This document shows, in pieces, positions 28,564 through 57,671 of a stretch of DNA of 64,000 nucleotides. The translations under genes were made by a program, and so were the position numbers. Location: the NCBI GenBank assembly GCA_050251055.1, contig JBFWNL010000001.1, positions 267,825 to 331,824 on the forward strand, written 5' to 3'. How positions within the stretch are numbered: the first letter of the stretch is position 1; each line of letters starts with the position of its first letter. This DNA is from Bacteriovoracia bacterium (GTDB lineage Bacteria > Bdellovibrionota > UBA1018 > JBFWNL01). Below the pieces are notes generated by a model. It did not search any database, was not told the origin of the DNA, and saw nothing but the letters and a program-made list of their open reading frames with translations.

Positions 28564-29526
28564 TCAAGCCAAGTGTAAGTCGTGTTGTCGCACCCGGCGC
28601 AGGAGCGTGGTCTTATTCATGCCGATCTGCCGAGCCGTCAAATTGATTCGGCCACGGAATCGCTCCAGCATCGTCGCCAGGTATTGTTTTTCGAATCGCG
28701 CGATCGTTTCGTAGTAGTCCATCGTCATCGGCACCTCCATCCAGCATACGGCGGCGGGCGCTTCCGCGGCGGTTCGCCCCCCTGAAACGGCTCCGGAGCC
28801 CCCAAGAAAGAACCACGGCGGCAAATGCTCAATCCCAATTTCCTCGCCCTCGGCCGCGCTCACCGCAAACTCCAGAACATTGCGAAGCTCCCGAACGTTG
28901 CCCGGCCAGCCGTGGCGCTCAAGGGATCCCGCAAGCTCTTCTGTAATTCGGCGGATGGCCTTTCCCTGCTCCCGGCTGATCTCGGACAGGCAGGCGTGCA
29001 CAATCGCGTCGAACTCGTCCGGTCGGGCCGCTAGAGACTTTAGTTCCAGCGTTATCACGCGCAATCGGTGAAAAAGATCCTCGCGAAAGTTCCCCCGACG
29101 GGCTTCCGTCGCCAAATCCCGATGGGTGGCGGCGATCACCCGCACGTCCAACTTTAATTCACGGTTCGAACCTAGCGGCATCACGACCCTCGACTGCAGG
29201 AAATCCAGTAACCGCGCCTGCAGTCGAGGGGTGAGCTCCCCTATCTCATCCAAAAAGACCGTCCCCCCATTTGCCATTTCCAAACGGCCCGTGCGCCGCT
29301 GGTCCGCACCGGTAAATGCCCCCCGCTCGTGGCCGAATAACTCCGACTCGAGCGTCCCCTCGTGCATCGTCGCTAAATTCACCGTCACGAATGGCTTCGC
29401 CTTGCGTGGCCCCTGCTCATGAATCTTCCTCGCTAAACGAGTTTTCCCGCTCCCCGTCGGTCCCGTGATCAGGACCGTCCCACTCGTACGCGCGGCCAGA
29501 GCCACTAAATCAACGCTTGCTCTCAT
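28564..29526 (-). CDS. sigma54-dependent activator (bEBP) without N-terminal regulatory domain
   Basis: [47 protein letters not shown]-terminal Fis HTH; start ATG 29526 after a purine-rich RBS. Confidence 0.88.
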   Translation of the reverse strand: MRASVDLVALAARTSGTVLITGPTGSGKTRLARKIHEQGPRKAKPFVTVNLATMHEGTLESELFGHERGAFTGADQRRTGRLEMANGGTVFLDEIGELTPRLQARLLDFLQSRVVMPLGSNRELKLDVRVIAATHRDLATEARRGNFREDLFHRLRVITLELKSLAARPDEFDAIVHACLSEISREQGKAIRRITEELAGSLERHGWPGNVRELRNVLEFAVSAAEGEEIGIEHLPPWFFLGGSGAVSGGRTAAEAPAAVCWMEVPMTMDYYETIARFEKQYLATMLERFRGRINLTARQIGMNKTTLLRRVRQHDLHLA

Positions 29527-29557
29527 CTCTCTCTCCCCTTTTTGGATTTGTTCAAAC

Positions 29558-29615: not shown

Positions 29616-29631
29616 AGCAAGTGGCGTTCCA
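29616..29631 (-). promoter_or_regulatory. sigma54 (-24/-12) promoter
   Basis: Minus strand TGGAAC-GCCAC-TTGCT (GG-N10-GC). Confidence 0.65.
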
Positions 29632-29790: not shown

Positions 29791-31206
29791 ATGAATTCAA
29801 AACCCGCCGTACTGATCTGCGATGACGACGCGCTCTTTCAGGCGACGCTGAAGCACGTGCTGGCGGATCGATTCGATATTCATTCGACCACGAATCCGGA
29901 CGAAGCCCGTGCCGCTTTGAAGTCCCGGCCCTTTCAGGTGATGTTGCTGGATATCCAGATGCGCACCCCCGACGATGGGTTACGGGCTCTGCCCAAGATT
30001 CGTGAACTCGAGCCCGATCTTCCCATCATCATGATCAGCGGTCGAAGTGACTTCCACACCGTCAAGGAAGCCATGCGACTGGGCGCGACCGATTACATCC
30101 CGAAAAACTTCGAACCGGACGACCTGCTGATTGCCATCGAACGTGCGCTGACGCATGCACGCACCGTACGCCAAGCAAGGCATCAGGACTTCGAGCGGCG
30201 TAAGGAGCACGGAAAGCATCAGTTCATCGGTAACTCGCCGGCCATCCTGAAGCTGAGGGCCGATTTAGAGAAGATACGCCGACGACCCGTGAATGTCCTC
30301 ATCACGGGCGAAACCGGTACGGGAAAGGAAGTCATCGCCCGGCAACTGCGGGGAAGCCTGGCGGACGGGACTCTGGAGCCTTTCGTCGCGCTGGACTCCT
30401 CAACTATCCAAGGGACCATGGCCGAGAGCGTGCTGTTCGGACATGAACGGGGGGCATTTACCGGCGCGGACCAGCTCCATAAAGGCGTCTTCGAATGCGC
30501 GGACGGGGGCATCGTTTACTTCGATGAAATCGCGAACATGCCGCTCCCAATCCAGGTGAAACTCCTGCGCGTGCTTGAGGAGAAAGAGATCACCCGCGTC
30601 GGGGGGACCCGCGCCATTCCGCTAGAGTTTCGGGTAATCGCGGCCAGCAATCAAGACTTGGCCGCGATGGTACGCAAAGGAGAGTTCAAGGCTGATCTTT
30701 TGAATCGCCTGGACGTAATTCAACTCCAACTGCCTCCCCTCCGCGATCGGCGCGAAGACATTCCTAAGTTAGCGGCTTATTTTTGCGAGCCCCGGACATC
30801 TCACTTCACCGAGGCTGCGCTCATGGCACTGCAAGCGTACGATTGGCCGGGAAACCTGCGCGAGCTTCGCAATGTCATGAACTACGTACTCACTTTGGCC
30901 GACGGCGAAGAGATCGACTTGGGAGATCTCCCGCCAAAGGTACGCGACCCCCTCCCGCGCGCATCGACTCAACTCAAAGCGGTAGATGCGATCCCGGAAA
31001 ACGCCACCCAACTCCTCGCCCAAGGCGTGGGATTTTATGATTTGGTGGCTGGATTCGAAAAGACCGTGCTCGCCGCCGCTTACCGGGAGAGCGATCAAAA
31101 CGTGAGCCAGCTGGCAATCAAACTCGGCATGGACCGTTCGCATTTACACGGAAAGCTCAAGGCTTATGGGATTCACGAAGCCAAGCCCAAGCCTCCCGGC
31201 CGTTGA
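29791..31206 (+). CDS. NtrC-family sigma54-dependent response regulator
   Basis: Receiver (CDDD, LLDIQM, ISG, PK), AAA+ [25 protein letters not shown]. Confidence 0.93.
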
Positions 31207-33756: not shown

Positions 33757-33889
33757 GCGGGCCTCCTCCTCAGTTAAAACTCTTCACCTGTCAAAAGACT
33801 AGACACGATTCTAAGGAGATCTCCCCTTTAATTCCAGGAAAACCCCTGGTTATACGAATATGTACGACCATGGCCAAGCGTGTCAGTTA

Positions 33890-33905
33890 TGGCACCTCTC
33901 TTGCT
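33890..33905 (+). promoter_or_regulatory. sigma54 (-24/-12) promoter
   Basis: TGGCAC-CTCTC-TTGCT, perfect consensus, 30 nt before ATG 33936. Confidence 0.75.
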
Positions 33906-33935
33906 TTATGTCGCTTCAGTAGGAGTCTATTTTTT

Positions 33936-34997
33936 ATGCTGCGTAATCTTGCTGTACTTGCGGTTTCCCTGAGCTTGGCCAACCCTCTCGCATTCGCGGG
34001 GGATAAGGCGCCCGTTTTCACGATCAAGGGCGTAGGTGCACGAGACCAAGTACGCGGAACCCTCCCTGCTCAGGATTTGCGCGATCTCATGGGCAAGGAA
34101 GAGCAAGTGATGGGACTCCAGAAAGACTACCTGAAAAAGCGCGAATGCAAGATCGACTCGAAGTACACGACGTTGATTCCTTACTGGGATGCCAAAGAGC
34201 AAGCCAAGCGAGACTGGGAGGCGACCATCGATCCTGAACTCGCCGACTTACTTGCCCAGTACTCCGGAAATCTGACTCGCATTGCTTCGGAACTCAAGGG
34301 ACCGAACAATCCTTCCGCGGCTCTCACCGTATTCACGCGGGATTTCGCCGCGTACGCTAAGACGGTGCGTGAGCTGGAAAATTTTGAAAAGTCCGATGAA
34401 GCCGAAGGCAACTGGTTCGACCATTCCCACAAGCGCAAGCGTAAGGGGCATACGGAAAAAGCCGATATCGAGCTCCAAACGCTGGTGAACAATAACCGAG
34501 CGAACCTGGCTAACCTCATCACGATCCACACGGCCGCGAAGACAGCGATCGAAAACGACGGCCGTAATCCTGACTTGCTGGATAAGGTGGAAGAACTTTA
34601 CTACCACAGCCGCGTGCTAGCGGTGCTGAACTACGCGCTGAAGAAACTCGATCACGCGGAAGCGCAAAACGCCTATCGCATGCAGGTGCTTCGTAACTTC
34701 AACGGCGACCTGATCAACACCGCCGGTTTTGACGACGCCTGCGCGGTGGTCAGAAAAGTCGGCCAGATCGACGCCTTGCTCACCGCCCTGAGCGGTGGGA
34801 TCAACGATCTAGACAACGCCATCGCCGCCGCTGACGGTAGCTCGCGACGCCCCACCTTGAACAACGTGGTGGGAGACGAGCCTACCCGCGAATCCATCAC
34901 CGACGCCTACCTAAAGGCCCGTACGTTTATCTTGAACACTACCTTGCCCGACACCGTGCTCGAGAACGAAAATCTTCGCTCTTGGGTGGGCAAGTAA
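33936..34997 (+). CDS. secreted, largely alpha-helical hypothetical protein
   Basis: AGGAG RBS; signal peptide MLRNLAVLAVSLSLANPLAFA; no recognised motif. Confidence 0.75.
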   Translation: MLRNLAVLAVSLSLANPLAFAGDKAPVFTIKGVGARDQVRGTLPAQDLRDLMGKEEQVMGLQKDYLKKRECKIDSKYTTLIPYWDAKEQAKRDWEATIDPELADLLAQYSGNLTRIASELKGPNNPSAALTVFTRDFAAYAKTVRELENFEKSDEAEGNWFDHSHKRKRKGHTEKADIELQTLVNNNRANLANLITIHTAAKTAIENDGRNPDLLDKVEELYYHSRVLAVLNYALKKLDHAEAQNAYRMQVLRNFNGDLINTAGFDDACAVVRKVGQIDALLTALSGGINDLDNAIAAADGSSRRPTLNNVVGDEPTRESITDAYLKARTFILNTTLPDTVLENENLRSWVGK

Positions 34998-49016: not shown

Positions 49017-50093
49017 ATGAACTTCTTAGCGCGCGCACTCGAGCCCCCTCGATACGGTTATTCCCGGGAGGGGAAGCTGTATGTTCCCAGTCGGCCCGAA
49101 CTCTTCCGCGAGTTCTTTCGCGGCCTGAACGTATTTGGATCCCGAAAGCGATGGCTCCCCTTCCTTTCCTGGCTCACGACCTTATCGCTCGCATTTCCGC
49201 TCGCAACTTTCCTCGAGCGCTACTTCAGCTGGACGTTCATGCTCGTGGGCTTCTTGTTCGCGATGGTAGTGCTCGGTAGCCACGGTACGTTTTGGTTGCA
49301 TCGTTATTGCACTCACCGCGCATACAAATTCCGCAACCTTTTTTGGCTCCAGGTTTGCCGAAACTTGGTGCCGAAGATCATTCCTGAGGAAACTTACGTG
49401 GTCTCGCACTACGTGCACCATCAGTTTTCCGAGCAGCCGGGCGACCCCTACAATGTCCACGGTGGCGGATGGTACTGCTTTCTCGCCGACGTCAACCACC
49501 AGGGTATTCGCAAGGATTTGACCGAAGCGGAATACACGCAAGTCTCCCGGCTTTTGAAAAACTCCGGAGTACGCCTGAACTCTTACCGGCAATATCAACG
49601 CTGGGGAACGCTATGCCATCCCGCCTGGACGATCGCCCACTTCGCCTTGAGTTGGGCGTTTTGGTACGGGGCGTACTATGCCGTCGGCGGACACGCGCTG
49701 GCCACGTGCCTATTCGGGTGGACCGGCGTTTGGTCCATTGGCGTACGCACTTACAATTTCGACGGTCACGGCCGCGGGAAAGACCGTCGCCGGGATGGGG
49801 TCGACTTCAACCGCGAAGATCTCTCGGTGAACCAAATTTGGCCGGGCTATGTTTCCGGCGAGTGGCATAACAACCATCACCTGTACCCTTATGGCGCCCG
49901 CAGCGGTTTTCTACCCCACCAGCTCGACCTACCGTGGCTCCTGATTCGGGGATTAGCGAAACTAGGCGTGATCACGTCCTACCATGACTTCCGAGACGAG
50001 TTTCTCCGCGATCACTACCTCCCTTGGCTGGAAAAACAAAAGACGGAGAAGGGCGCGATCGCTCTGCCGGAACTCGCACCGACCGAGAGCTGA
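49017..50093 (+). CDS. membrane fatty acid desaturase (delta-9-like)
   Basis: His boxes HRYCTH, HYVHH, HNNHH; TM segments. Confidence 0.9.
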   Translation: MNFLARALEPPRYGYSREGKLYVPSRPELFREFFRGLNVFGSRKRWLPFLSWLTTLSLAFPLATFLERYFSWTFMLVGFLFAMVVLGSHGTFWLHRYCTHRAYKFRNLFWLQVCRNLVPKIIPEETYVVSHYVHHQFSEQPGDPYNVHGGGWYCFLADVNHQGIRKDLTEAEYTQVSRLLKNSGVRLNSYRQYQRWGTLCHPAWTIAHFALSWAFWYGAYYAVGGHALATCLFGWTGVWSIGVRTYNFDGHGRGKDRRRDGVDFNREDLSVNQIWPGYVSGEWHNNHHLYPYGARSGFLPHQLDLPWLLIRGLAKLGVITSYHDFRDEFLRDHYLPWLEKQKTEKGAIALPELAPTES

Positions 50094-50244
50094 TTCGACC
50101 CCAGGAGGCCGGTTTTTTTGGCCCCAATTTCTCGCTTTTCTACCGGAGTCCAACGGACACCTCGCCTGCTGTTTCTTTCCCAATTCAAAAAAATCCCCCA
50201 GAGTTCTCTCATCATCCACGCACAGCTCTTTGCGTCAAAAGCTC

Positions 50245-50260
50245 CGGTATGGAACTTGCT
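50245..50260 (+). promoter_or_regulatory. sigma54 (-24/-12) promoter
   Basis: CGGTAT-GGAAC-TTGCT (GG-N10-GC), 32 nt before ATG 50293 with AGGAGG RBS. Confidence 0.55.
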
Positions 50261-50292
50261 GAATTGCCCGGCAAATTCTCTAGGAGGGGACC

Positions 50293-51636
50293 ATGTTTCA
50301 AAAATCCAAACTGTTGGCAGGCATCGGTGCGTGTATCAGCGCATCGCTCATGATTATAAATTCCGGAAGCGCGGTGCGCGCGAGCGCCGATCGCAACTCA
50401 GAAACGATTGTCTTTGACGGAAGCACGCTGAATCTCACGCGTGACCTGCAAGACACGCTCTCGCATACCGTCTATGAAGACCGGCAGGTGCCGGATACCT
50501 GCTACGAACGAGTCGTAGTGGGTTACGAAACGCAGTGCCATACGGAATACGATCGGGTTTGCCACACGGAGACTCGCCCCGTTTGTCGCACGGAAACCCG
50601 ACGTGAATGTGACAACACCACCCGTCGCGAATGCTATCCAGAAACGCGCCGCGAGTGCGATCGCACCACTCGACGCGAATGCAGCCAGGAAACCAAATGC
50701 CACGACGTTCCCGATCAGATCTGCCATACGACGCCCAAAGGTGAACGCGAATGCCGGGACATCTCGCGCCGCGAGTGCAACTCGGAGACCGTATGCCGGG
50801 ACGTACCGGATGAGATCTGCCGTACCTATACCGAAAACGTCTGCCGCGACGTCCCTGACCAGATTTGCCGCACCTACGACGAACAGGTGTGCCGCGATGA
50901 AAGCGAGCAGGTTTGCGAAACCTATCCGCGCGAAGCCTGCGAAGAAGTCCCCGTCTACGAAGATCGTGCCTATGCCTGCACGCGTACCGAACGAGTGCCG
51001 GTAGGAACAGAGATCGATCTCGAGACCACCGCAAGCGTGCAAATCACTTTCAGCGGCGTCCCTACGGGCACAACCCCGAACGAGACGATGGCTCTGAGCC
51101 TTCGGGGGGATCAGCTAACGCTCGCGCAACTGAGCGGTAGCGGGCAATTGTTGCTACTCGTGGATAAGCGCATTGAAGTTCGCGATACGGGCACGAAACG
51201 CAAGCACATCGACGCCGTCTTTACGATCACAGTAATGAAGGTGGTGGATGTCACCGCTCCCCTCACCCGCGTCATCGAGGGACTGAACGCAAAGAAAGGG
51301 GTCATCAGCGCGACCCTGGGCGCGGTAAACCATCCCGAGACCTTGAGCCTGCAGCTCAAGATCACCAAGGGGCGCGATATCCTTATCGCTCGTGAGTTAA
51401 AAGACATCGAGTTCACGTTGACGGGCCTTAGCCCGTCGAAGCCGGGCTCCCCCGCCCTGACCCAGCTCACGATCGACGTAAGCCGGCTTGAATTGGCCAT
51501 GCCGGTCACCTCGGGCAAGCATGAGGTCACGTTAACGGCGGGGCTCAAGCCCGCGACGCGCGCACGCGCCCTCAACGCGAAGGTGCTGCCCGCGAAGCTC
51601 GAGCAATCTGCGAGCAAGAAGCTGTCGCTTAAATAG
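50293..51636 (+). CDS. secreted protein with Cys-x7 repeat region (20 Cys) and C-terminal beta-rich domain(s)
   Basis: Signal peptide; tandem 8-aa repeats (C..TRRE, CRDVPDQI); AGGAGG RBS. Confidence 0.85.
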   Translation: MFQKSKLLAGIGACISASLMIINSGSAVRASADRNSETIVFDGSTLNLTRDLQDTLSHTVYEDRQVPDTCYERVVVGYETQCHTEYDRVCHTETRPVCRTETRRECDNTTRRECYPETRRECDRTTRRECSQETKCHDVPDQICHTTPKGERECRDISRRECNSETVCRDVPDEICRTYTENVCRDVPDQICRTYDEQVCRDESEQVCETYPREACEEVPVYEDRAYACTRTERVPVGTEIDLETTASVQITFSGVPTGTTPNETMALSLRGDQLTLAQLSGSGQLLLLVDKRIEVRDTGTKRKHIDAVFTITVMKVVDVTAPLTRVIEGLNAKKGVISATLGAVNHPETLSLQLKITKGRDILIARELKDIEFTLTGLSPSKPGSPALTQLTIDVSRLELAMPVTSGKHEVTLTAGLKPATRARALNAKVLPAKLEQSASKKLSLK

Positions 51637-52986: not shown

Positions 52987-53847
52987 GTGATTGTGGGGAT
53001 AGCAAAAATCCGCGACTTGGGCCGGGGGCCTGGGTTGTCGGTATTCGTATTACTTTTGTGTTTGAGCGTCATAAACGCGGAAGCCGCGACGGAAGCGACC
53101 GCGCAGCCTTCCATGTTCTCGCTCGATGCTTTGCTCTCCGCTAGCACGAGCCTGCATACGGGTGAGCAAGCCGCGAGAGCCTCTGAAATGCAACTCTGGC
53201 TCACGCCGGGCATACGGATTTCAGAGAACTGGAAGCTCACCGCGCTCGGGATCATCACGCAAAATCTTGAAAACGAGATGGGCGTCACGATGAGCGACGT
53301 GGAAATCGGCGCTCGCCGCAAAGGCTGGGAGCTCAACCCCTTCTTAAAATTCTCGCCGGGAATCGGCATGAAGGTTCCGGGCAGCAAGACCTCCGTCGTG
53401 GGCCGCGGCTTCCGTACCTCGATCGCGGTTAAGCCCCGCTTGATGTACGATCTTTCCGCCCTCAAGATCTGGGGTCTGCGCGCGATCTCGGGCTACTACC
53501 AGGCTTCGGGTACGCGTAACTTCCACGAGTTTAATACTTCCATCACCGGCGTCTCCAACTCGCAGTACTCCTTCGTGAACACGCTGCGCGTGAATGTCGC
53601 CTTCACGGAGAAGCTCAGCCTCACCCTCGATCAGCTCTTCACCGCGGCCTGGACCTACGAAGGCACGCCCAAGAGCACCTTCGAGATGGGGCAAGAGCTT
53701 AGCTACGAATTTACGGAAAGTTTTGCGTTAGGGGTCGGACATAATAACTCCGGCAATATGTACAAAGAAAACGGCCTGGATTCGAACCTCCAGTTCTTCA
53801 ACCAGGACCACTCGACCGTGTATATGAGCGCGGCGTTTAAGCTTTAA
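52987..53847 (+). CDS. probable outer-membrane beta-barrel protein
   Basis: Signal peptide ending INAEA; many amphipathic strands; ends AAFKL. Confidence 0.65.
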   Translation: MIVGIAKIRDLGRGPGLSVFVLLLCLSVINAEAATEATAQPSMFSLDALLSASTSLHTGEQAARASEMQLWLTPGIRISENWKLTALGIITQNLENEMGVTMSDVEIGARRKGWELNPFLKFSPGIGMKVPGSKTSVVGRGFRTSIAVKPRLMYDLSALKIWGLRAISGYYQASGTRNFHEFNTSITGVSNSQYSFVNTLRVNVAFTEKLSLTLDQLFTAAWTYEGTPKSTFEMGQELSYEFTESFALGVGHNNSGNMYKENGLDSNLQFFNQDHSTVYMSAAFKL

Positions 53848-53861
53848 AAGGGGATAGAGAC

Positions 53862-56800
53862 ATGAAAACGAACCAGCTTTTTTTCGCTTCGGCCACGGTA
53901 TTGGCGCTAGCCATCTCGGGCTGCACTAAGCCACGTCCATATAAAGAGGTCTATAAGGAAGAGGTGCTCGATCGAGGGCTCTTCGACACGAAGTCCCTCT
54001 ACCTCTACGCGCCGTCGGTCGTGGATTCCGCACGGACGTCGACCGCTTCTCGTCCTTACTGGATGGGAGAGCAGAAGCTCGTAAAGCTGAAGTTCGCCGA
54101 AGACGGGCTGAAGCTCGTGGAAGTCGAAGGCGACGCACGCTTTACGGACAATCCGACCAACGAAAAACCGGTGCTAACAATTCCCGGGGAGTACCTAGAA
54201 TACCGCTGCGCCAAGAACGAAGTGGACGAGTGTTCCAACAAGGAAGAAGTAAACAACGATCTGCCTTGGAGCGCTCGGTCGAAATTCAAGCCCAAGCTGG
54301 CGAAGCTCGAGGTTCAGGAAACCAACCTCATGCCCACCCAGCTCGCGAACCTGGTCATCGGCTGCTATAAAGACCAGGGTTTCGAAGTCGTAAGCGCCAA
54401 GTGGGAAAACGACGCCATCAACTTTGAACTCGAACACTCGTACGGCGTGAATGTGATGTGCGCGGACTTCGATCAAGCCGCCACCGAGCACGAGCTCTTC
54501 TCAGGCCTGACCGTGAAGGTACGCGAACACTTCTCGATCGTGAAACGCGACTCGCTCGTCACGAAGGGCTACGAGCCGGTGAAGTATCCGGAAGCCGATA
54601 GTAATACGTTCGGCTTCTTCGAGACCGAGCAGCATAAGCTCGACGTCGATAACCGGGACCAAGAAAAAGGCATGACCAAGCTCATGAACCGCTGGAACCC
54701 GCAGGCTAAGGAAGTCGTGTACTACTTGAGCGCGGCCTACCGAAAACCCGAGCTAGCTCACATTCGGGAAGCGACGCTCCAGTCGGTGAAGATCATCAAT
54801 GACGGCTTAGCGCAATCGGGCGCGAACCTTCGTTTGGTGGCCAAGGACATGACCGAATCCACGCGCATCGGCGATCTACGCACGAACGCGCTCGTGCTGG
54901 TGGAAGATCCGATCGCGGGCGGGCTCTTGGGCTACGGCCCGACGATCGCCGACCCCCTCACGGGCGAGATCATCCATGGCCGCGTGGTAATGTACTACGG
55001 CAACCTCGTCAAATACATCAAGCTGACCTACGACGACATTGTCGCTGAACGTCGTCGTGAAGCGGGAGCGCCGCCGGCCCAGCCTCCGGTGGACGCGCCT
55101 AAGGAAGAGCCGAAAGAAGAACCCAAGGACGACGCCGGTTTGCTGATGGCGCTGAAGGCCACCCCCGCCGCGAGCGGCTTGGACGCGGAAGTCCGCAAGC
55201 TCACGCTCGAATCCGCGACCGACCTGAGGGACAAACCGCGCCAGAAGATGAATCTCGGCCAAATGCGCGAGCTCGTCCGTGCCCAAGGGTACGACATGAC
55301 CCGGATCCAGGAGCGCTATCGAATTGCCCAAGCCAAGGCAAATGACGCCGGCAAGGCTGAAGATCTGCTGCCGATATCCGAGGTCAACGAAAAAGCCGAT
55401 CGCCTCTCCACGCTTTCGGAACACTGCGGTTACCCGGGTGAAATGGCTAATTTCCAGGGCGCCGTGGGATCCGCGATCGACGACGTATTGCCCAAGGGTG
55501 AGTTAAAGCCTTGGGAAGAGCTGACGGACGCCGAAAAGGTCCAGATCACGCGTCTCATTCTGCCGACGACCTGGGTCCCGACGCTCATCCACGAACTCGG
55601 TCACAACCTGGGCCTGCGCCATAACTTCGCCGGCAGCATGGATAAGGCGAATCATTATACCGCCAAGGAAACGGAAAAATTGGGCCTGAAGCGAATCATG
55701 CCCTACTCCTCGATGATGGAATACCCCAATAAGGAGATCAATGCGCTCCAGGTGATGGGTAAGTACGACATCGCAGCCCTACGCTTCGGTTACACCCGCA
55801 CGGTGGAGCAACTCGATATCGAGCGCGACGCCGACGGCAAGCCGAAAGTTGACGACGAGGGCGAATACGTGATCAAAACGGCGAAAAACGACGCCGGCGA
55901 AGAAGTACCCGTGACGGTCTCCGTAGCCGTGCCCGGCACATTAGCGGAGCTGAAAGCCAAAACCGATCCAAAACTCACGTTCACAAACTACGAGTATTGC
56001 ACGGACGAAGGCGTGGGCGCGAACCCCACCTGTAACCGTTTCGACGAAGGCACGACTATGGCCGAAGTCGCGCAAAATCTCATCGACAGCTACGACGAGA
56101 TGTATACGCGGCGTAACTTCCGCTCCGGTCGCCGCGATTTCAGCCTGATGAATGATGGCGATTACGCGATTTCCATCAACCGCACCTTCCGCGGCCTGCG
56201 CCTGTTCTTCGAAATGTACGAAACGCTGGTCACGCGCTTCAACATTCCGGCGGAAGCCTGGGAGGAAGAGCCGTTCCTGGCCGATCTGAACTCGGCCGTG
56301 GAAAAAGCCGGCGACTTCTACTTGAGGGTGATGCGCACGCCGGACGTCTTCTGCTCGCTCGCCTCAATTGACGAGCCGAACGAACCGGTCGGTCTGCAGA
56401 TGCTCTATGCGATCAACAAGCGATCGGTGAGCTGCTTCGAGCCGGCCATCATCGCGCTCGCGGCGCAGAACGGACTTGTGGTTCACGGGCAAGGCGGACG
56501 GTCTTTCCGTTCGCTGAAGGCCCCCGGTAGCGAGAACCCATACGCTGACCAAATCGACGTACGCGGGATCTGGATCGATAAGCTCCTGGCCGAACAGAGC
56601 CTGCTCGCCCGGCGCATCGGCAGCCCGCTGTTCGACGGCGAAACCCTGAACTTCCTGCAGAAGCCAGGATTCGCCGATAAGGCGCTTAAGGCGTTCGAGG
56701 AGATCCTGGACGATCGCCTCACCGGCGAGCTCGTGGTGACGACTGCCCAAGGCAAACAGGTTTCGCTGGGAGCAGGCGGTTGGCCGCTCTCGGTCACGCA

Positions 56801-57671
56801 CAAGATTGTACGGCCGATGGATCCGTTCATTCGCCGGGCGTTCTCGCTCCCGCAAGGCGACAACACGACCTTCGTCAACGAGCTCGTCTTCAACGTGAAT
56901 GCGTGGATGCCGAGCCGCGAGCACGACTGGGCGGCTCGGCCGTTCATCCGGCTGTTTGACGTCTGGGAAGTGTCGCTCACGGACAGCCAAGACTACGACA
57001 AGAGCCTGCGCGTGCTCGACCTGGGAACCCGCCGTTTCTTGGCGGGCCCGCAGCAGGCGTTCGCGCGCAAAATCATGAACGAGATGGATCAAGTCCGCCT
57101 CATGACTCAGGTCAAGCCAGCGGATCTGGCGAAGATTCTCGCGGACCTGAAGAAACCGCAGCCCCCGGGCCCGGCTCCGGAGCCAAAGCCGGATCCCAAA
57201 CAGAATGAGGATCGCGCGGCGAAGCAACAGCGCATCGCCATCGCGGGCCTGAGCTTGGAGACGTTCCGTAAACGCGTGGCGGACGCGAAAGACTGGACGA
57301 TCGAGCAGCTGCTGGAGATTCTCAAGCAGGCCGGCGCCGAAGGCGAAATCAAGGAGCGGGAACTCGCCCGCGCCGTGATCGCCGTTAGCGACGCGCTCGA
57401 GATCGCGCGGGCCGCGAAGCCAGGCGAGGAACAAGACGCCAAAATCCTGGAAGTCGTGAAAGCTTCCAAGAAAGAAGCCGTGGTCAAGCTCGTGATCGAG
57501 AAGGTCATTAGCGAAGCCATCGTGCCGGCCGAACCCGTGCCGACCGAAACGATCGAAGCCAAGGTCCGCAAGCTCGGCCCGGCCCCGATCGAGAAGTTCC
57601 TCAAGAATGGATTCAAGTCGGAGCGCGTTTACTCTGACTTATTGATGGTTCTCACTAAATCCGGCCGCTAG
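53862..57671 (+). CDS. large zinc-dependent metalloprotease lipoprotein (EcxA-like)
   Basis: Lipobox ISGC; LLGYGP...DPLTGEI, HELGHNLGLRHNFAGS (HExxHxxGxxH), Met-turn SSMMEY, YDIAAL, CTD. Confidence 0.9.
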   Translation: MKTNQLFFASATVLALAISGCTKPRPYKEVYKEEVLDRGLFDTKSLYLYAPSVVDSARTSTASRPYWMGEQKLVKLKFAEDGLKLVEVEGDARFTDNPTNEKPVLTIPGEYLEYRCAKNEVDECSNKEEVNNDLPWSARSKFKPKLAKLEVQETNLMPTQLANLVIGCYKDQGFEVVSAKWENDAINFELEHSYGVNVMCADFDQAATEHELFSGLTVKVREHFSIVKRDSLVTKGYEPVKYPEADSNTFGFFETEQHKLDVDNRDQEKGMTKLMNRWNPQAKEVVYYLSAAYRKPELAHIREATLQSVKIINDGLAQSGANLRLVAKDMTESTRIGDLRTNALVLVEDPIAGGLLGYGPTIADPLTGEIIHGRVVMYYGNLVKYIKLTYDDIVAERRREAGAPPAQPPVDAPKEEPKEEPKDDAGLLMALKATPAASGLDAEVRKLTLESATDLRDKPRQKMNLGQMRELVRAQGYDMTRIQERYRIAQAKANDAGKAEDLLPISEVNEKADRLSTLSEHCGYPGEMANFQGAVGSAIDDVLPKGELKPWEELTDAEKVQITRLILPTTWVPTLIHELGHNLGLRHNFAGSMDKANHYTAKETEKLGLKRIMPYSSMMEYPNKEINALQVMGKYDIAALRFGYTRTVEQLDIERDADGKPKVDDEGEYVIKTAKNDAGEEVPVTVSVAVPGTLAELKAKTDPKLTFTNYEYCTDEGVGANPTCNRFDEGTTMAEVAQNLIDSYDEMYTRRNFRSGRRDFSLMNDGDYAISINRTFRGLRLFFEMYETLVTRFNIPAEAWEEEPFLADLNSAVEKAGDFYLRVMRTPDVFCSLASIDEPNEPVGLQMLYAINKRSVSCFEPAIIALAAQNGLVVHGQGGRSFRSLKAPGSENPYADQIDVRGIWIDKLLAEQSLLARRIGSPLFDGETLNFLQKPGFADKALKAFEEILDDRLTGELVVTTAQGKQVSLGAGGWPLSVTHKIVRPMDPFIRRAFSLPQGDNTTFVNELVFNVNAWMPSREHDWAARPFIRLFDVWEVSLTDSQDYDKSLRVLDLGTRRFLAGPQQAFARKIMNEMDQVRLMTQVKPADLAKILADLKKPQPPGPAPEPKPDPKQNEDRAAKQQRIAIAGLSLETFRKRVADAKDWTIEQLLEILKQAGAEGEIKERELARAVIAVSDALEIARAAKPGEEQDAKILEVVKASKKEAVVKLVIEKVISEAIVPAEPVPTETIEAKVRKLGPAPIEKFLKNGFKSERVYSDLLMVLTKSGR

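Follow-up and report, generated by a model that had tools for sequence, protein, structure and literature searches.

A mirror-symmetric cysteine array in Bdellovibrionota: a candidate length-tunable β-ribbon with nested disulfide rungs under putative sigma54 control

Introduction

This locus raises the question of what structure, and what role, would be given to a protein by 20 cysteines whose spacing is mirror-symmetric. The gene concerned lies at positions 50293-51636 (+ strand) of a 64,000-nucleotide stretch of DNA, here called the window, from a Bacteriovoracia bacterium (contig JBFWNL010000001.1), and its product of 447 amino acids (aa) is referred to as the query. An earlier note on this DNA had proposed a secreted protein in which nested disulfides zip two strands into a ribbon that projects from a β-sandwich. 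Based on the spacing of Cys in the query and its relatives, residue statistics, predicted structures and the upstream DNA of related genes, the favoured reading is that of an exported, monomeric ribbon, namely a stapled stalk on a β-sandwich base under sigma54 control, to which a probability of roughly 0.7 is given.

Cysteine spacing in the query and its relatives

The query contains Cys at residues 14, 70, 82, 90, 98, 106, 114, 122, 130, 136 and 144 in its first half and at residues 154, 162, 168, 176, 184, 192, 200, 208, 216 and 229 in its second. For the 20 Cys from C70 to C229, the numbers of intervening residues were 11,7,7,7,7,7,7,5,7,9,7,5,7,7,7,7,7,7,12, a palindrome centred on C144-HTTPKGERE-C154; this recount from the translation was identical to the list in the earlier note. 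The 17 inner gaps (14 x 7, 2 x 5 and 1 x 9) can be arranged in 2040 ways, of which only 8 (0.4%) are palindromes. The family evidence for mirror spacing is far stronger than this single-protein chance figure.

Relatives were collected in two ways. A word-seeded search gave 23, and 1.84 billion cluster representatives searched exhaustively with HMMER gave 295 at E <= 1e-3, of which 143 were at <= 1e-10 and 26 at <= 1e-30 (best E 1.5e-82). The relatives appear to belong to Bdellovibrionales, Bdellovibrio sp., Bacteriovorax sp. and Oligoflexia, all of them from metagenome-assembled genomes (MAGs), and the family is found mainly in Bdellovibrionota. The MAGs of two relatives look mis-binned. Cys gaps were tabulated for 164 proteins, comprising the query, the 23 word-search relatives and further ones among the best 150 of the 295 representatives.

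Two rules were used to delimit the arrays. The strict rule, which takes the longest exact palindrome bordered by a left end gap of 10-12 and a right end gap of 12 or 14, was satisfied by 112/164 proteins with 6 to 36 Cys. The looser rule, running from a first gap of 10-12 or 19-20 through a last gap of 12, 14 or 19-20, recognised both array ends in 150/164 proteins, with Cys numbers from 4 to 36. The other 14 were eight fragments and six proteins with other end gaps, most of these six being palindromic inside (P0122, P0143, P0160).

An even number of Cys was present in 149 of the 150 arrays; in the exception, P0163, a further Cys follows 19 residues beyond the array. Exact palindromes accounted for 124/150. 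A single unequal gap pair was seen in 21 (in 19 of these by one residue), and three or more unequal pairs in four, two of these four (P0075 and P0103) being false outcomes of the anchoring rule caused by a signal-peptide Cys. Overall, 802/844 mirrored gap pairs were equal, whereas 1000 shuffles gave 450 on average and never more than 482, and among pairs with at least one member other than 7 the figure was 295/337. The arrays fall into 115 distinct architectures, 91 of which are exact palindromes.

A FastTree phylogeny was built on the post-stalk region of 136 proteins, leaving aside those with a tail of <150 residues and three that were mis-anchored. On this tree, the Cys number changed at least 68 times. 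For 25 family genes read directly from genomes, all arrays were even, 23 being exact palindromes and two being off by one residue at one or two gaps. Rung number differs between tandem paralogues at L025 (22 and 18 Cys) and L033 (10, 14 and 14), those at L034 having 4 and 4. The check suggested in the earlier note, whether homologs gain or lose repeats in matched pairs on both arms, was thus borne out, and an expansion on one arm only was found in none of the delimited arrays. On these spacings, the predicted stalk changes length only through matched changes on both arms, over a range of 2 to 18 rungs.

Predicted pairing of the two arms

Losses of Cys were also mirrored. P0008 is without both Cys of the second rung, its end gaps being 19 (11+1+7) and 20 (7+1+12), and non-central gaps of 15 (7+1+7), present in three proteins, were mirrored in all three. 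A missing Cys is therefore accompanied by a missing mirror partner, which agrees with nested cross-arm pairing.

The distribution of Pro was examined within 1046 C-x7-C units of both arms. At offsets 2, 4 and 6 after Cys, Pro was found in 11.4, 21.9 and 12.2% of N-arm units and in 6.0, 44.4 and 1.9% of C-arm units, respectively, compared with 0-0.8% at the odd offsets 1, 3, 5 and 7. The same parity was seen in the 5- and 9-residue units. Confinement of Pro to the parity of Cys matches the period-2 signature of a β-strand. Cross-strand disulfides favour non-hydrogen-bonded pairs, at which the backbone NH points outward and Pro is tolerated on a free edge. A helical hairpin was also considered and was ruled out by the Pro pattern together with the β prediction. 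The gap-8 units correspond to 7-residue units carrying a P-G bulge (P in 77% at offset 4, G in 58% at offset 5), mirrored on both arms.

For 758 matched units from 103 proteins, directly opposed residues were of opposite charge in 482 pairs and of like charge in 174. In 500 permutations that reassigned the returning units to other rungs within a protein, opposite-charge pairs fell to 400.6 +/- 11.3 (maximum 432) and like-charge pairs rose to 234.5 +/- 9.4 (minimum 210). Cross-strand charges thus compensate rung by rung. The earlier note had placed the complementarity at the level of whole arms, with an Arg-rich outgoing and an acidic returning arm. In the query, the outgoing arm (C70-C144) has R13 K1 D5 E11 (net -2) and the returning arm (C154-C229) R10 K0 D8 E12 (net -10), so that both are net acidic and the described difference is only a tendency; the complementarity holds unit by unit. 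Arm-level complementarity was likewise rejected as a family trait, the mean net charges of the arms being -0.16 vs -0.75 in 118 proteins. In the query, the outgoing units RTETRRE / DNTTRRE / YPETRRE / DRTTRRE are set against the returning units RTYDEQV / RDVPDQI / RTYTENV / RDVPDEI. The a-b-a-b order of subtypes in the returning arm is mirrored in the outgoing arm, matching the 48-nucleotide (nt) two-unit period of the DNA at 50790-50897.

In relatives, Gly, Asn, Pro and Asp are abundant in the central gaps (e.g. CNSHGC, CRTDxxGxxxC). Some relatives carry a low-complexity insert exactly at the array centre, consisting of 52-122 residues of Gly-, Pro- or His-rich repeats (P0054, P0047, P0080 and P0013/P0017/P0022, with (DRRPDRPGNGGG)n among the repeats), and P0143 has a charged, His-rich insert of 266 residues at the tip. 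Such long inserts would be tolerated at a solvent-exposed tip.

In P0004 (470 aa), three tandem tip modules of the form [5-residue unit][DVxD unit][turn][xRRE unit][5-residue unit] were observed, and its whole gap list is palindromic. These modules could form either a single long hairpin or, at the stalk's end, a meander of four strands.

Predicted structure

The features of the gene and of its product are as follows, all on the + strand.

50282-50287: ribosome-binding site AGGAGG, 5 nt ahead of the ATG, read from the sequence
50293-51636: coding sequence with ATG start, 447 aa plus stop
50293-50388: probable signal peptide, residues 1-32, assigned by eye (MFQKSK, hydrophobic LLAGIGACISASLMII, ..RASA|D)
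50389-50499: N-terminal base strands, residues 33-69 (AlphaFold2 strands 36-41 and 47-69; block-mean pLDDT ~80-94)
50500-50724: outgoing arm, C70 to C144, 10 Cys, mostly ..T(T/E)xRRE-C units, within predicted strand 47-146
50725-50751: tip turn HTTPKGERE, residues 145-153, predicted non-strand at 147-151
50752-50979: returning arm, C154 to C229, 10 Cys, RDVPDxI-C and RTYxExV-C units, within predicted strand 152-254
50790-50897: 48-nt tandem duplication, 2.2 copies with 76% matches, the two-unit period of the returning arm
50980-51267: rest of base domain D1, residues 230-325, predicted β strands, pLDDT mostly >90
51268-51633: predicted immunoglobulin (Ig)/fibronectin type III (FnIII)-like β-sandwich D2, ~residues 326-447, by correspondence with residues 181-300 of P0121

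Among relatives, the motif VPDTC closes the N-terminal base strands, T69 and C70 being nearly invariant.

AlphaFold2 was run on the query with a 23-row alignment. The model had a mean predicted local distance difference test (pLDDT) of 80.3 and a predicted template modelling score (pTM) of 0.55, and showed a single hairpin made of residues 47-146, a turn at 147-151 and residues 152-254. Block pLDDT was 64-84 along the stalk, >90 in the base and <50 for residues 1-32. The turn of the model sets residue i against 298-i; nine of the ten Cys pairs sum to 298, and C70/C229 to 299. The nested order put forward in the earlier note, from C1-C20 on the outside to C10-C11 at the turn, is therefore the one in which mirrored Cys are opposed in the model, the bonds themselves being predicted only. 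For P0121, a natural four-Cys relative modelled with a 50-row alignment, the same hairpin was obtained in a short form (35-71 / 80-117) with pLDDT 94.3 and pTM 0.79.

Residues 181-300 of the P0121 model matched many Ig/FnIII domains (VIA-align; Z 8.0-9.1, root mean square deviation 2.8-3.4 Å over 85-99 residues). Wide and second-look searches with the model found matches for these last 120 residues only. The C-terminal domain D2 is accordingly modelled as an Ig-like β-sandwich, a generic fold that implies no function. The base that the earlier note had expected from the flanking segments is likewise found in the models, in which it is made of N-terminal strands 36-41 and 47-69, the post-stalk strands and the Ig-like sandwich.

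Whole-model Foldseek searches of the PDB returned the anthrax protective antigen pore 6psn (E 6e-5 and 1.4e-4), iota Ib, CDTb, lysenin and aerolysin. These toxin matches had E-values of 6e-5 to 1e-2 but template modelling scores (TM) of only ~0.05-0.21, and the likeness appears to lie mainly in the long hairpin. A search of the whole model against viral folds in BFVD gave low-TM matches only. In the ESM Atlas, one Bdellovibrionota cluster was matched at 0.76 by features, and the structure rows reached a TM of up to 0.36 by query. By sequence, the only Pfam match of the query was GP41 at E 1.5, NCBIfam gave 0 families at E up to 10, and the best match of the family profile among PDB sequences was a designed protein at E 0.17.

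From first rung to tip, the stalk comprises 79 residues, or ~24-26 nm at 3.0-3.3 Å per residue, close to the ~25 nm of the earlier note. The corresponding estimates for the family extremes are ~4 nm for the minimal form (13 residues) and ~45 nm for the 36-Cys arrays (18 rungs).

Predicted export, oxidation and anchoring

The N-terminus of the query is likely a Sec signal peptide with an ASA|D cleavage site after residue 32. C14 lies inside its hydrophobic core; IGAC at residues 11-14 weakly resembles a lipobox, the hydrophobic residues continue beyond it and the ASA|D site follows. A lipobox-like motif, [LVI][ASTVI][GAS]C, was present in 13/154 Met-initiated members and was clear only in P0009, P0012 and P0059. 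Most members lack a lipobox and would therefore be soluble exported proteins. Two DSBA-family genes are present in the genome.

Candidate promoter

The earlier note had placed a sigma54 promoter ahead of the gene, and a candidate was located as follows.

50245-50260, + strand: sigma54-type -24/-12 promoter candidate CGGTATGGAACTTGCT (GG-N10-GC), with canonical GG/GC spacing and TTGC at -12

The stricter pattern TGG-N9-TGC was not found upstream of the gene; this search missed the candidate because the query has CGG. Support for the candidate came from its relatives. In 20 fetched loci together with the window, GG-N8-TTGC was present at -200 to +30 in 16/25 family genes, compared with 9/223 other open reading frames (ORFs; Fisher p = 5e-13, the related genes not being independent). 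Allowing for an over-called start, L020 becomes the 17th family gene with the motif. Most of the family motifs read TGGCA(C/T)-N5-TTGC, 30-60 nt before the ribosome site. Further genomes were scanned with a family alignment, which yielded 8 loci, compared with none for the single query protein; five further MAG loci carry the motif upstream, L038 with the GGTAT variant of the query. The genome also encodes rpoN (219.5 bits), and its 3.8 Mb contain 24 Sigma54_activat matches, 19 of them >160 bits. No inverted repeat that might serve as an enhancer was found in 50090-50295. A comparative paper (PMC3162934) proposes, in its available sections, sigma54 as a controller of the bacterial exterior.

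Other sigma54-related features were observed elsewhere in the window. A perfect sigma54 consensus, TGGCACCTCTCTTGCT, lies at 33890-33905 (+), within the ORF 33870-34997 and just ahead of what is probably the real start (MLRNLAVLAV...) of a protein of 375 aa whose N-terminus resembles a signal peptide. Two divergent genes for sigma54 enhancer-binding activators are found at ~29047-29535 (-) and 30226-30726 (+) (PF00158; 206.5 and 188.1 bits), with a one-mismatch sigma54 site between them at 29616-29631 (-).

Proposed mechanism and alternatives

The mirror rule, the many independent changes, the β periodicity, the predicted hairpin and the conserved promoter motif were computed directly; Cys oxidation, the monomeric ribbon, its localisation and its role are what we infer. 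Residues 70-229 would fold back as one long two-stranded antiparallel β-ribbon, in which the outgoing Cys face their mirror partners, from C144-C154 and C136-C162 to C82-C216 and C70-C229. The oxidising periplasm would turn these ten Cys pairs into nested disulfide rungs at a spacing of 8 residues, or 6 near the tip. The stalk, of ~24-26 nm, would project from a base to which the N-terminal strand, the post-stalk strands and the C-terminal Ig-like sandwich all contribute. Transcription would proceed from the sigma54 promoter, so that expression would depend on an enhancer-binding activator and a signal. The structural core of this proposal, a covalently stapled, polar, free-edged two-stranded ribbon on a β-sandwich base, is held with good confidence.

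As to role, the protein is tentatively viewed as a length-adjustable projection or spacer of the cell exterior that would hold its tip at a set distance for contact, for example with prey, a suggestion that remains doubtful. A contact projection would be our best guess and fits better than a fixed-distance ruler, given the fast change in length, the unequal paralogues, the tip inserts, the Ig-like base and the sigma54 promoter. The tip inserts of some members may be disordered and possibly sticky. For the full combination, a length-tunable ribbon of ~4 to 45 nm with up to 18 nested disulfide rungs that serves as a sigma54-controlled stand-off projection in Bdellovibrionota, the balance is about even.

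Several observations weigh against this account. Among the even arrays, 25/149 are not exact palindromes, and a subfamily with gaps of 10,9,8,7,9,8.. has odd periods, for which a regular ribbon would need bulges. The stalk part of the query model is only moderately confident (block pLDDT 64-84, pTM 0.55), and the ESM Atlas's own model is poor (pTM 0.38, pLDDT 0.65). No DsbC_N domain was found with PF10411 in the 93.5%-complete genome, yet ten nested disulfides would need isomerisation after Sec export. The promoter candidate CGGTATGGAACTTGCT has three mismatches in the -24 box to TGGCAC-N5-TTGCW, and such sites alone are at chance level (218 found, 230 expected in the window). The motif is absent from 8/25 family genes, six of which are short-stalk copies, five of those in tandem arrays. 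For the role, there is no conserved neighbour, most members are without an anchor and most tips are bare turns.

The two alternatives that keep the hairpin differ from the favoured account in assembly or in location. The hairpins of two or more subunits might join edge to edge into a sheet, tube or β-barrel, in the manner of the β-pore-forming toxin stems, so that the working unit would be an oligomeric tube or fibre. The top Foldseek matches of both models, pore-state proteins with very long hairpins, would suit this, and we know of no solved precedent for an isolated two-stranded ribbon of 75 residues per arm. Nevertheless, TM was only ~0.05-0.21, and Pro is present in 22-44% of units at offset 4, where the NH would bond an outside neighbour; edge strands use such Pro to avoid pairing. 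The tip from C136 to C162 (HDVPDQI / HTTPKGERE / RDISRRE) is, moreover, charged throughout, without an alternating hydrophobic stretch, and an oligomer is considered quite unlikely. The same structure might also act within the periplasm as a strut or ruler that spans or measures the envelope, like Lpp in enterobacteria. The periplasmic width is close to ~25 nm, near the estimated length of the query stalk, and a few relatives are lipoproteins with Gly at +2 (P0009, P0012, P0059). Against this, stalk length ranges from ~4 to ~45 nm, changed at least 68 times and differs between tandem paralogues of one genome, and a ruler for a conserved distance would not be expected to vary in this way. Of the 301 genomes of the phylum searched, only 52 had the family, and 141/154 members lack a lipobox. 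A periplasmic strut is thus unlikely, and less likely than an exterior projection.

The remaining alternatives dispense with cross-arm rungs. If disulfides formed locally, within consecutive C-x7-C loops or small modules, the mirror symmetry would have arisen incidentally through repeat duplication. According to the textbook view, DsbA oxidises successive Cys in their order of emergence; runs of 7,7,7.. are trivially palindromic, and tandem duplication of a symmetric tip module preserves a palindrome, as in P0004. Local loops do not, however, require that unit numbers be equal on either side of the 5,7,x,7,5 tip, as they are in every array that could be delimited. Heterogeneous patterns are mirrored as well (the 295/337 equal non-7 gap pairs), Cys are lost with their mirror partner and not with a neighbour, charges compensate in the mirror register and AlphaFold2 gives a hairpin. 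Local disulfides are, on this evidence, very unlikely. Even more improbable is that the Cys stay reduced and, with neighbouring His, bind metal or act as a redox buffer or store. His does occupy offset 1 after Cys in 21% of units on both arms, and some relatives, such as P0016, are very His-rich. The signal peptide, however, points to export into a compartment with DSBA-family oxidases, each rung would offer two thiols only, and by the period-2 pattern the offset-1 His would lie on the opposite face of the strand. Nor does the gap list contain a gap of 2, so that there is no CXXC or CXXCH; a heme or CXXC site was ruled out on the same ground.

Gene neighbourhood and distribution

Only one copy of the gene is present in its genome, where it is flanked by a gene for a His-box membrane protein and a convergent gene for an APH-family kinase. 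For the proteins flanking it in the window, no counterpart was found beside 11 relatives. In 20 loci of ~13 kb, no neighbour was shared beyond a subset of 5-6 loci; the shared neighbours in L021 are gyrA, ATP synthase a/c and riboflavin genes. Other genes observed in the window near the query are listed below.

49017-50093, + strand: 358-aa membrane protein with three His boxes, desaturase-like by eye, no Pfam match at E 1e-3
52987-53847: 286-aa ORF without Pfam match, preceding the Met-zincin gene
53862-57671, + strand: 1269-aa secreted Met-zincin (DUF4953 E 2.7e-10, Reprolysin_5), lipoprotein-like by eye

In the search of the phylum, a match at E <= 1e-5 was obtained in 52/301 genomes, with up to five per genome. 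The matching genomes are concentrated in three families (32/67, 10/12 and 6/35).

Mirrored C-x7-C arrays were also seen in other contexts (P0011, P0122, P0126, P0143, P0023 and L043). In P0011 the array is fused to a Cu_amine_oxidN1 domain (E 2.8e-25), and in P0122 (1009 aa) it stands ahead of two helical repeats of ~270 aa, while L043 is a weak, stalk-only match in a Thermoguttaceae MAG. The flanks of some of these arrays look non-bacterial by eye.

Comparison with known systems

No description of the family or of a long disulfide-laddered hairpin was found in the literature searched, which included the available sections of PMC12750041 and mostly did not extend to subscription journals. As far as could be found, the architecture is undescribed, the nearest being the 2-3-rung peptide ladders and the short bovine antibody ribbon discussed below. 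Should the rungs prove real, every known cystine ladder would be shorter by a wide margin, and the stalk would add to the few examples of a stable two-stranded β-ribbon that stands alone. It would also represent a nanometre-wide natural rod with a length dictated by how many 8-residue units it contains, at ~2.7 nm per rung, and would be of interest for protein design and as a spacer. A folding question follows, namely how 10-18 nested disulfides would be formed when the first arm exits the Sec channel ahead of its partner. The mirror rule itself illustrates cleanly how repeat numbers can change in a compensatory manner. This unannotated family comprises at least 295 cluster representatives; its fast-changing stalk length and shared sigma54 promoter make it a candidate for a part in surface contact or in the envelope architecture of predatory bacteria.

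Polar β rods without a hydrophobic core, acting as rigid spacers, are known from the central sheet of OspA and from the E-G5 repeats of SasG. Those rods are three-stranded and free of disulfides, SasG consisting of tandem domains. The β-pore-forming toxins (anthrax protective antigen 6psn, lysenin 5ec5, aerolysin) likewise extend very long hairpins from a β-rich body. Their hairpins, however, exist only in the oligomeric barrel, with an amphipathic membrane tip and no disulfide ladder, whereas the query has a charged tip and edge Pro, which argue against a barrel.

Closer in outline is the stalk of the bovine ultralong complementarity-determining region (CDR) H3. That stalk is short, and its disulfides are in the knob, with none along the stalk itself. 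According to the available sections of PMC10523490, it is likewise an exposed two-stranded β-ribbon that projects a tip from a β-sandwich. Unlike in the bovine CDR H3, the predicted rungs of the query run along the stalk, and most family tips are bare turns.

The nearest ladders are those of the theta-defensins and tachyplesin-class peptides, which have ~17-25 residues and 2-3 rungs and are cationic, amphipathic and membrane-active. Like the query, as predicted here, theta-defensins and the β-hairpin antimicrobial peptides tachyplesin and protegrin consist of antiparallel strands joined by turns and crossed by nested rungs (PMC13001179 and PMC10096437, available sections). They have no sequence relation to the query, which differs from them in having ten predicted rungs (2-18 in relatives) at an 8-residue spacing, in a net-acidic module of ~160 residues within a 447-aa protein.

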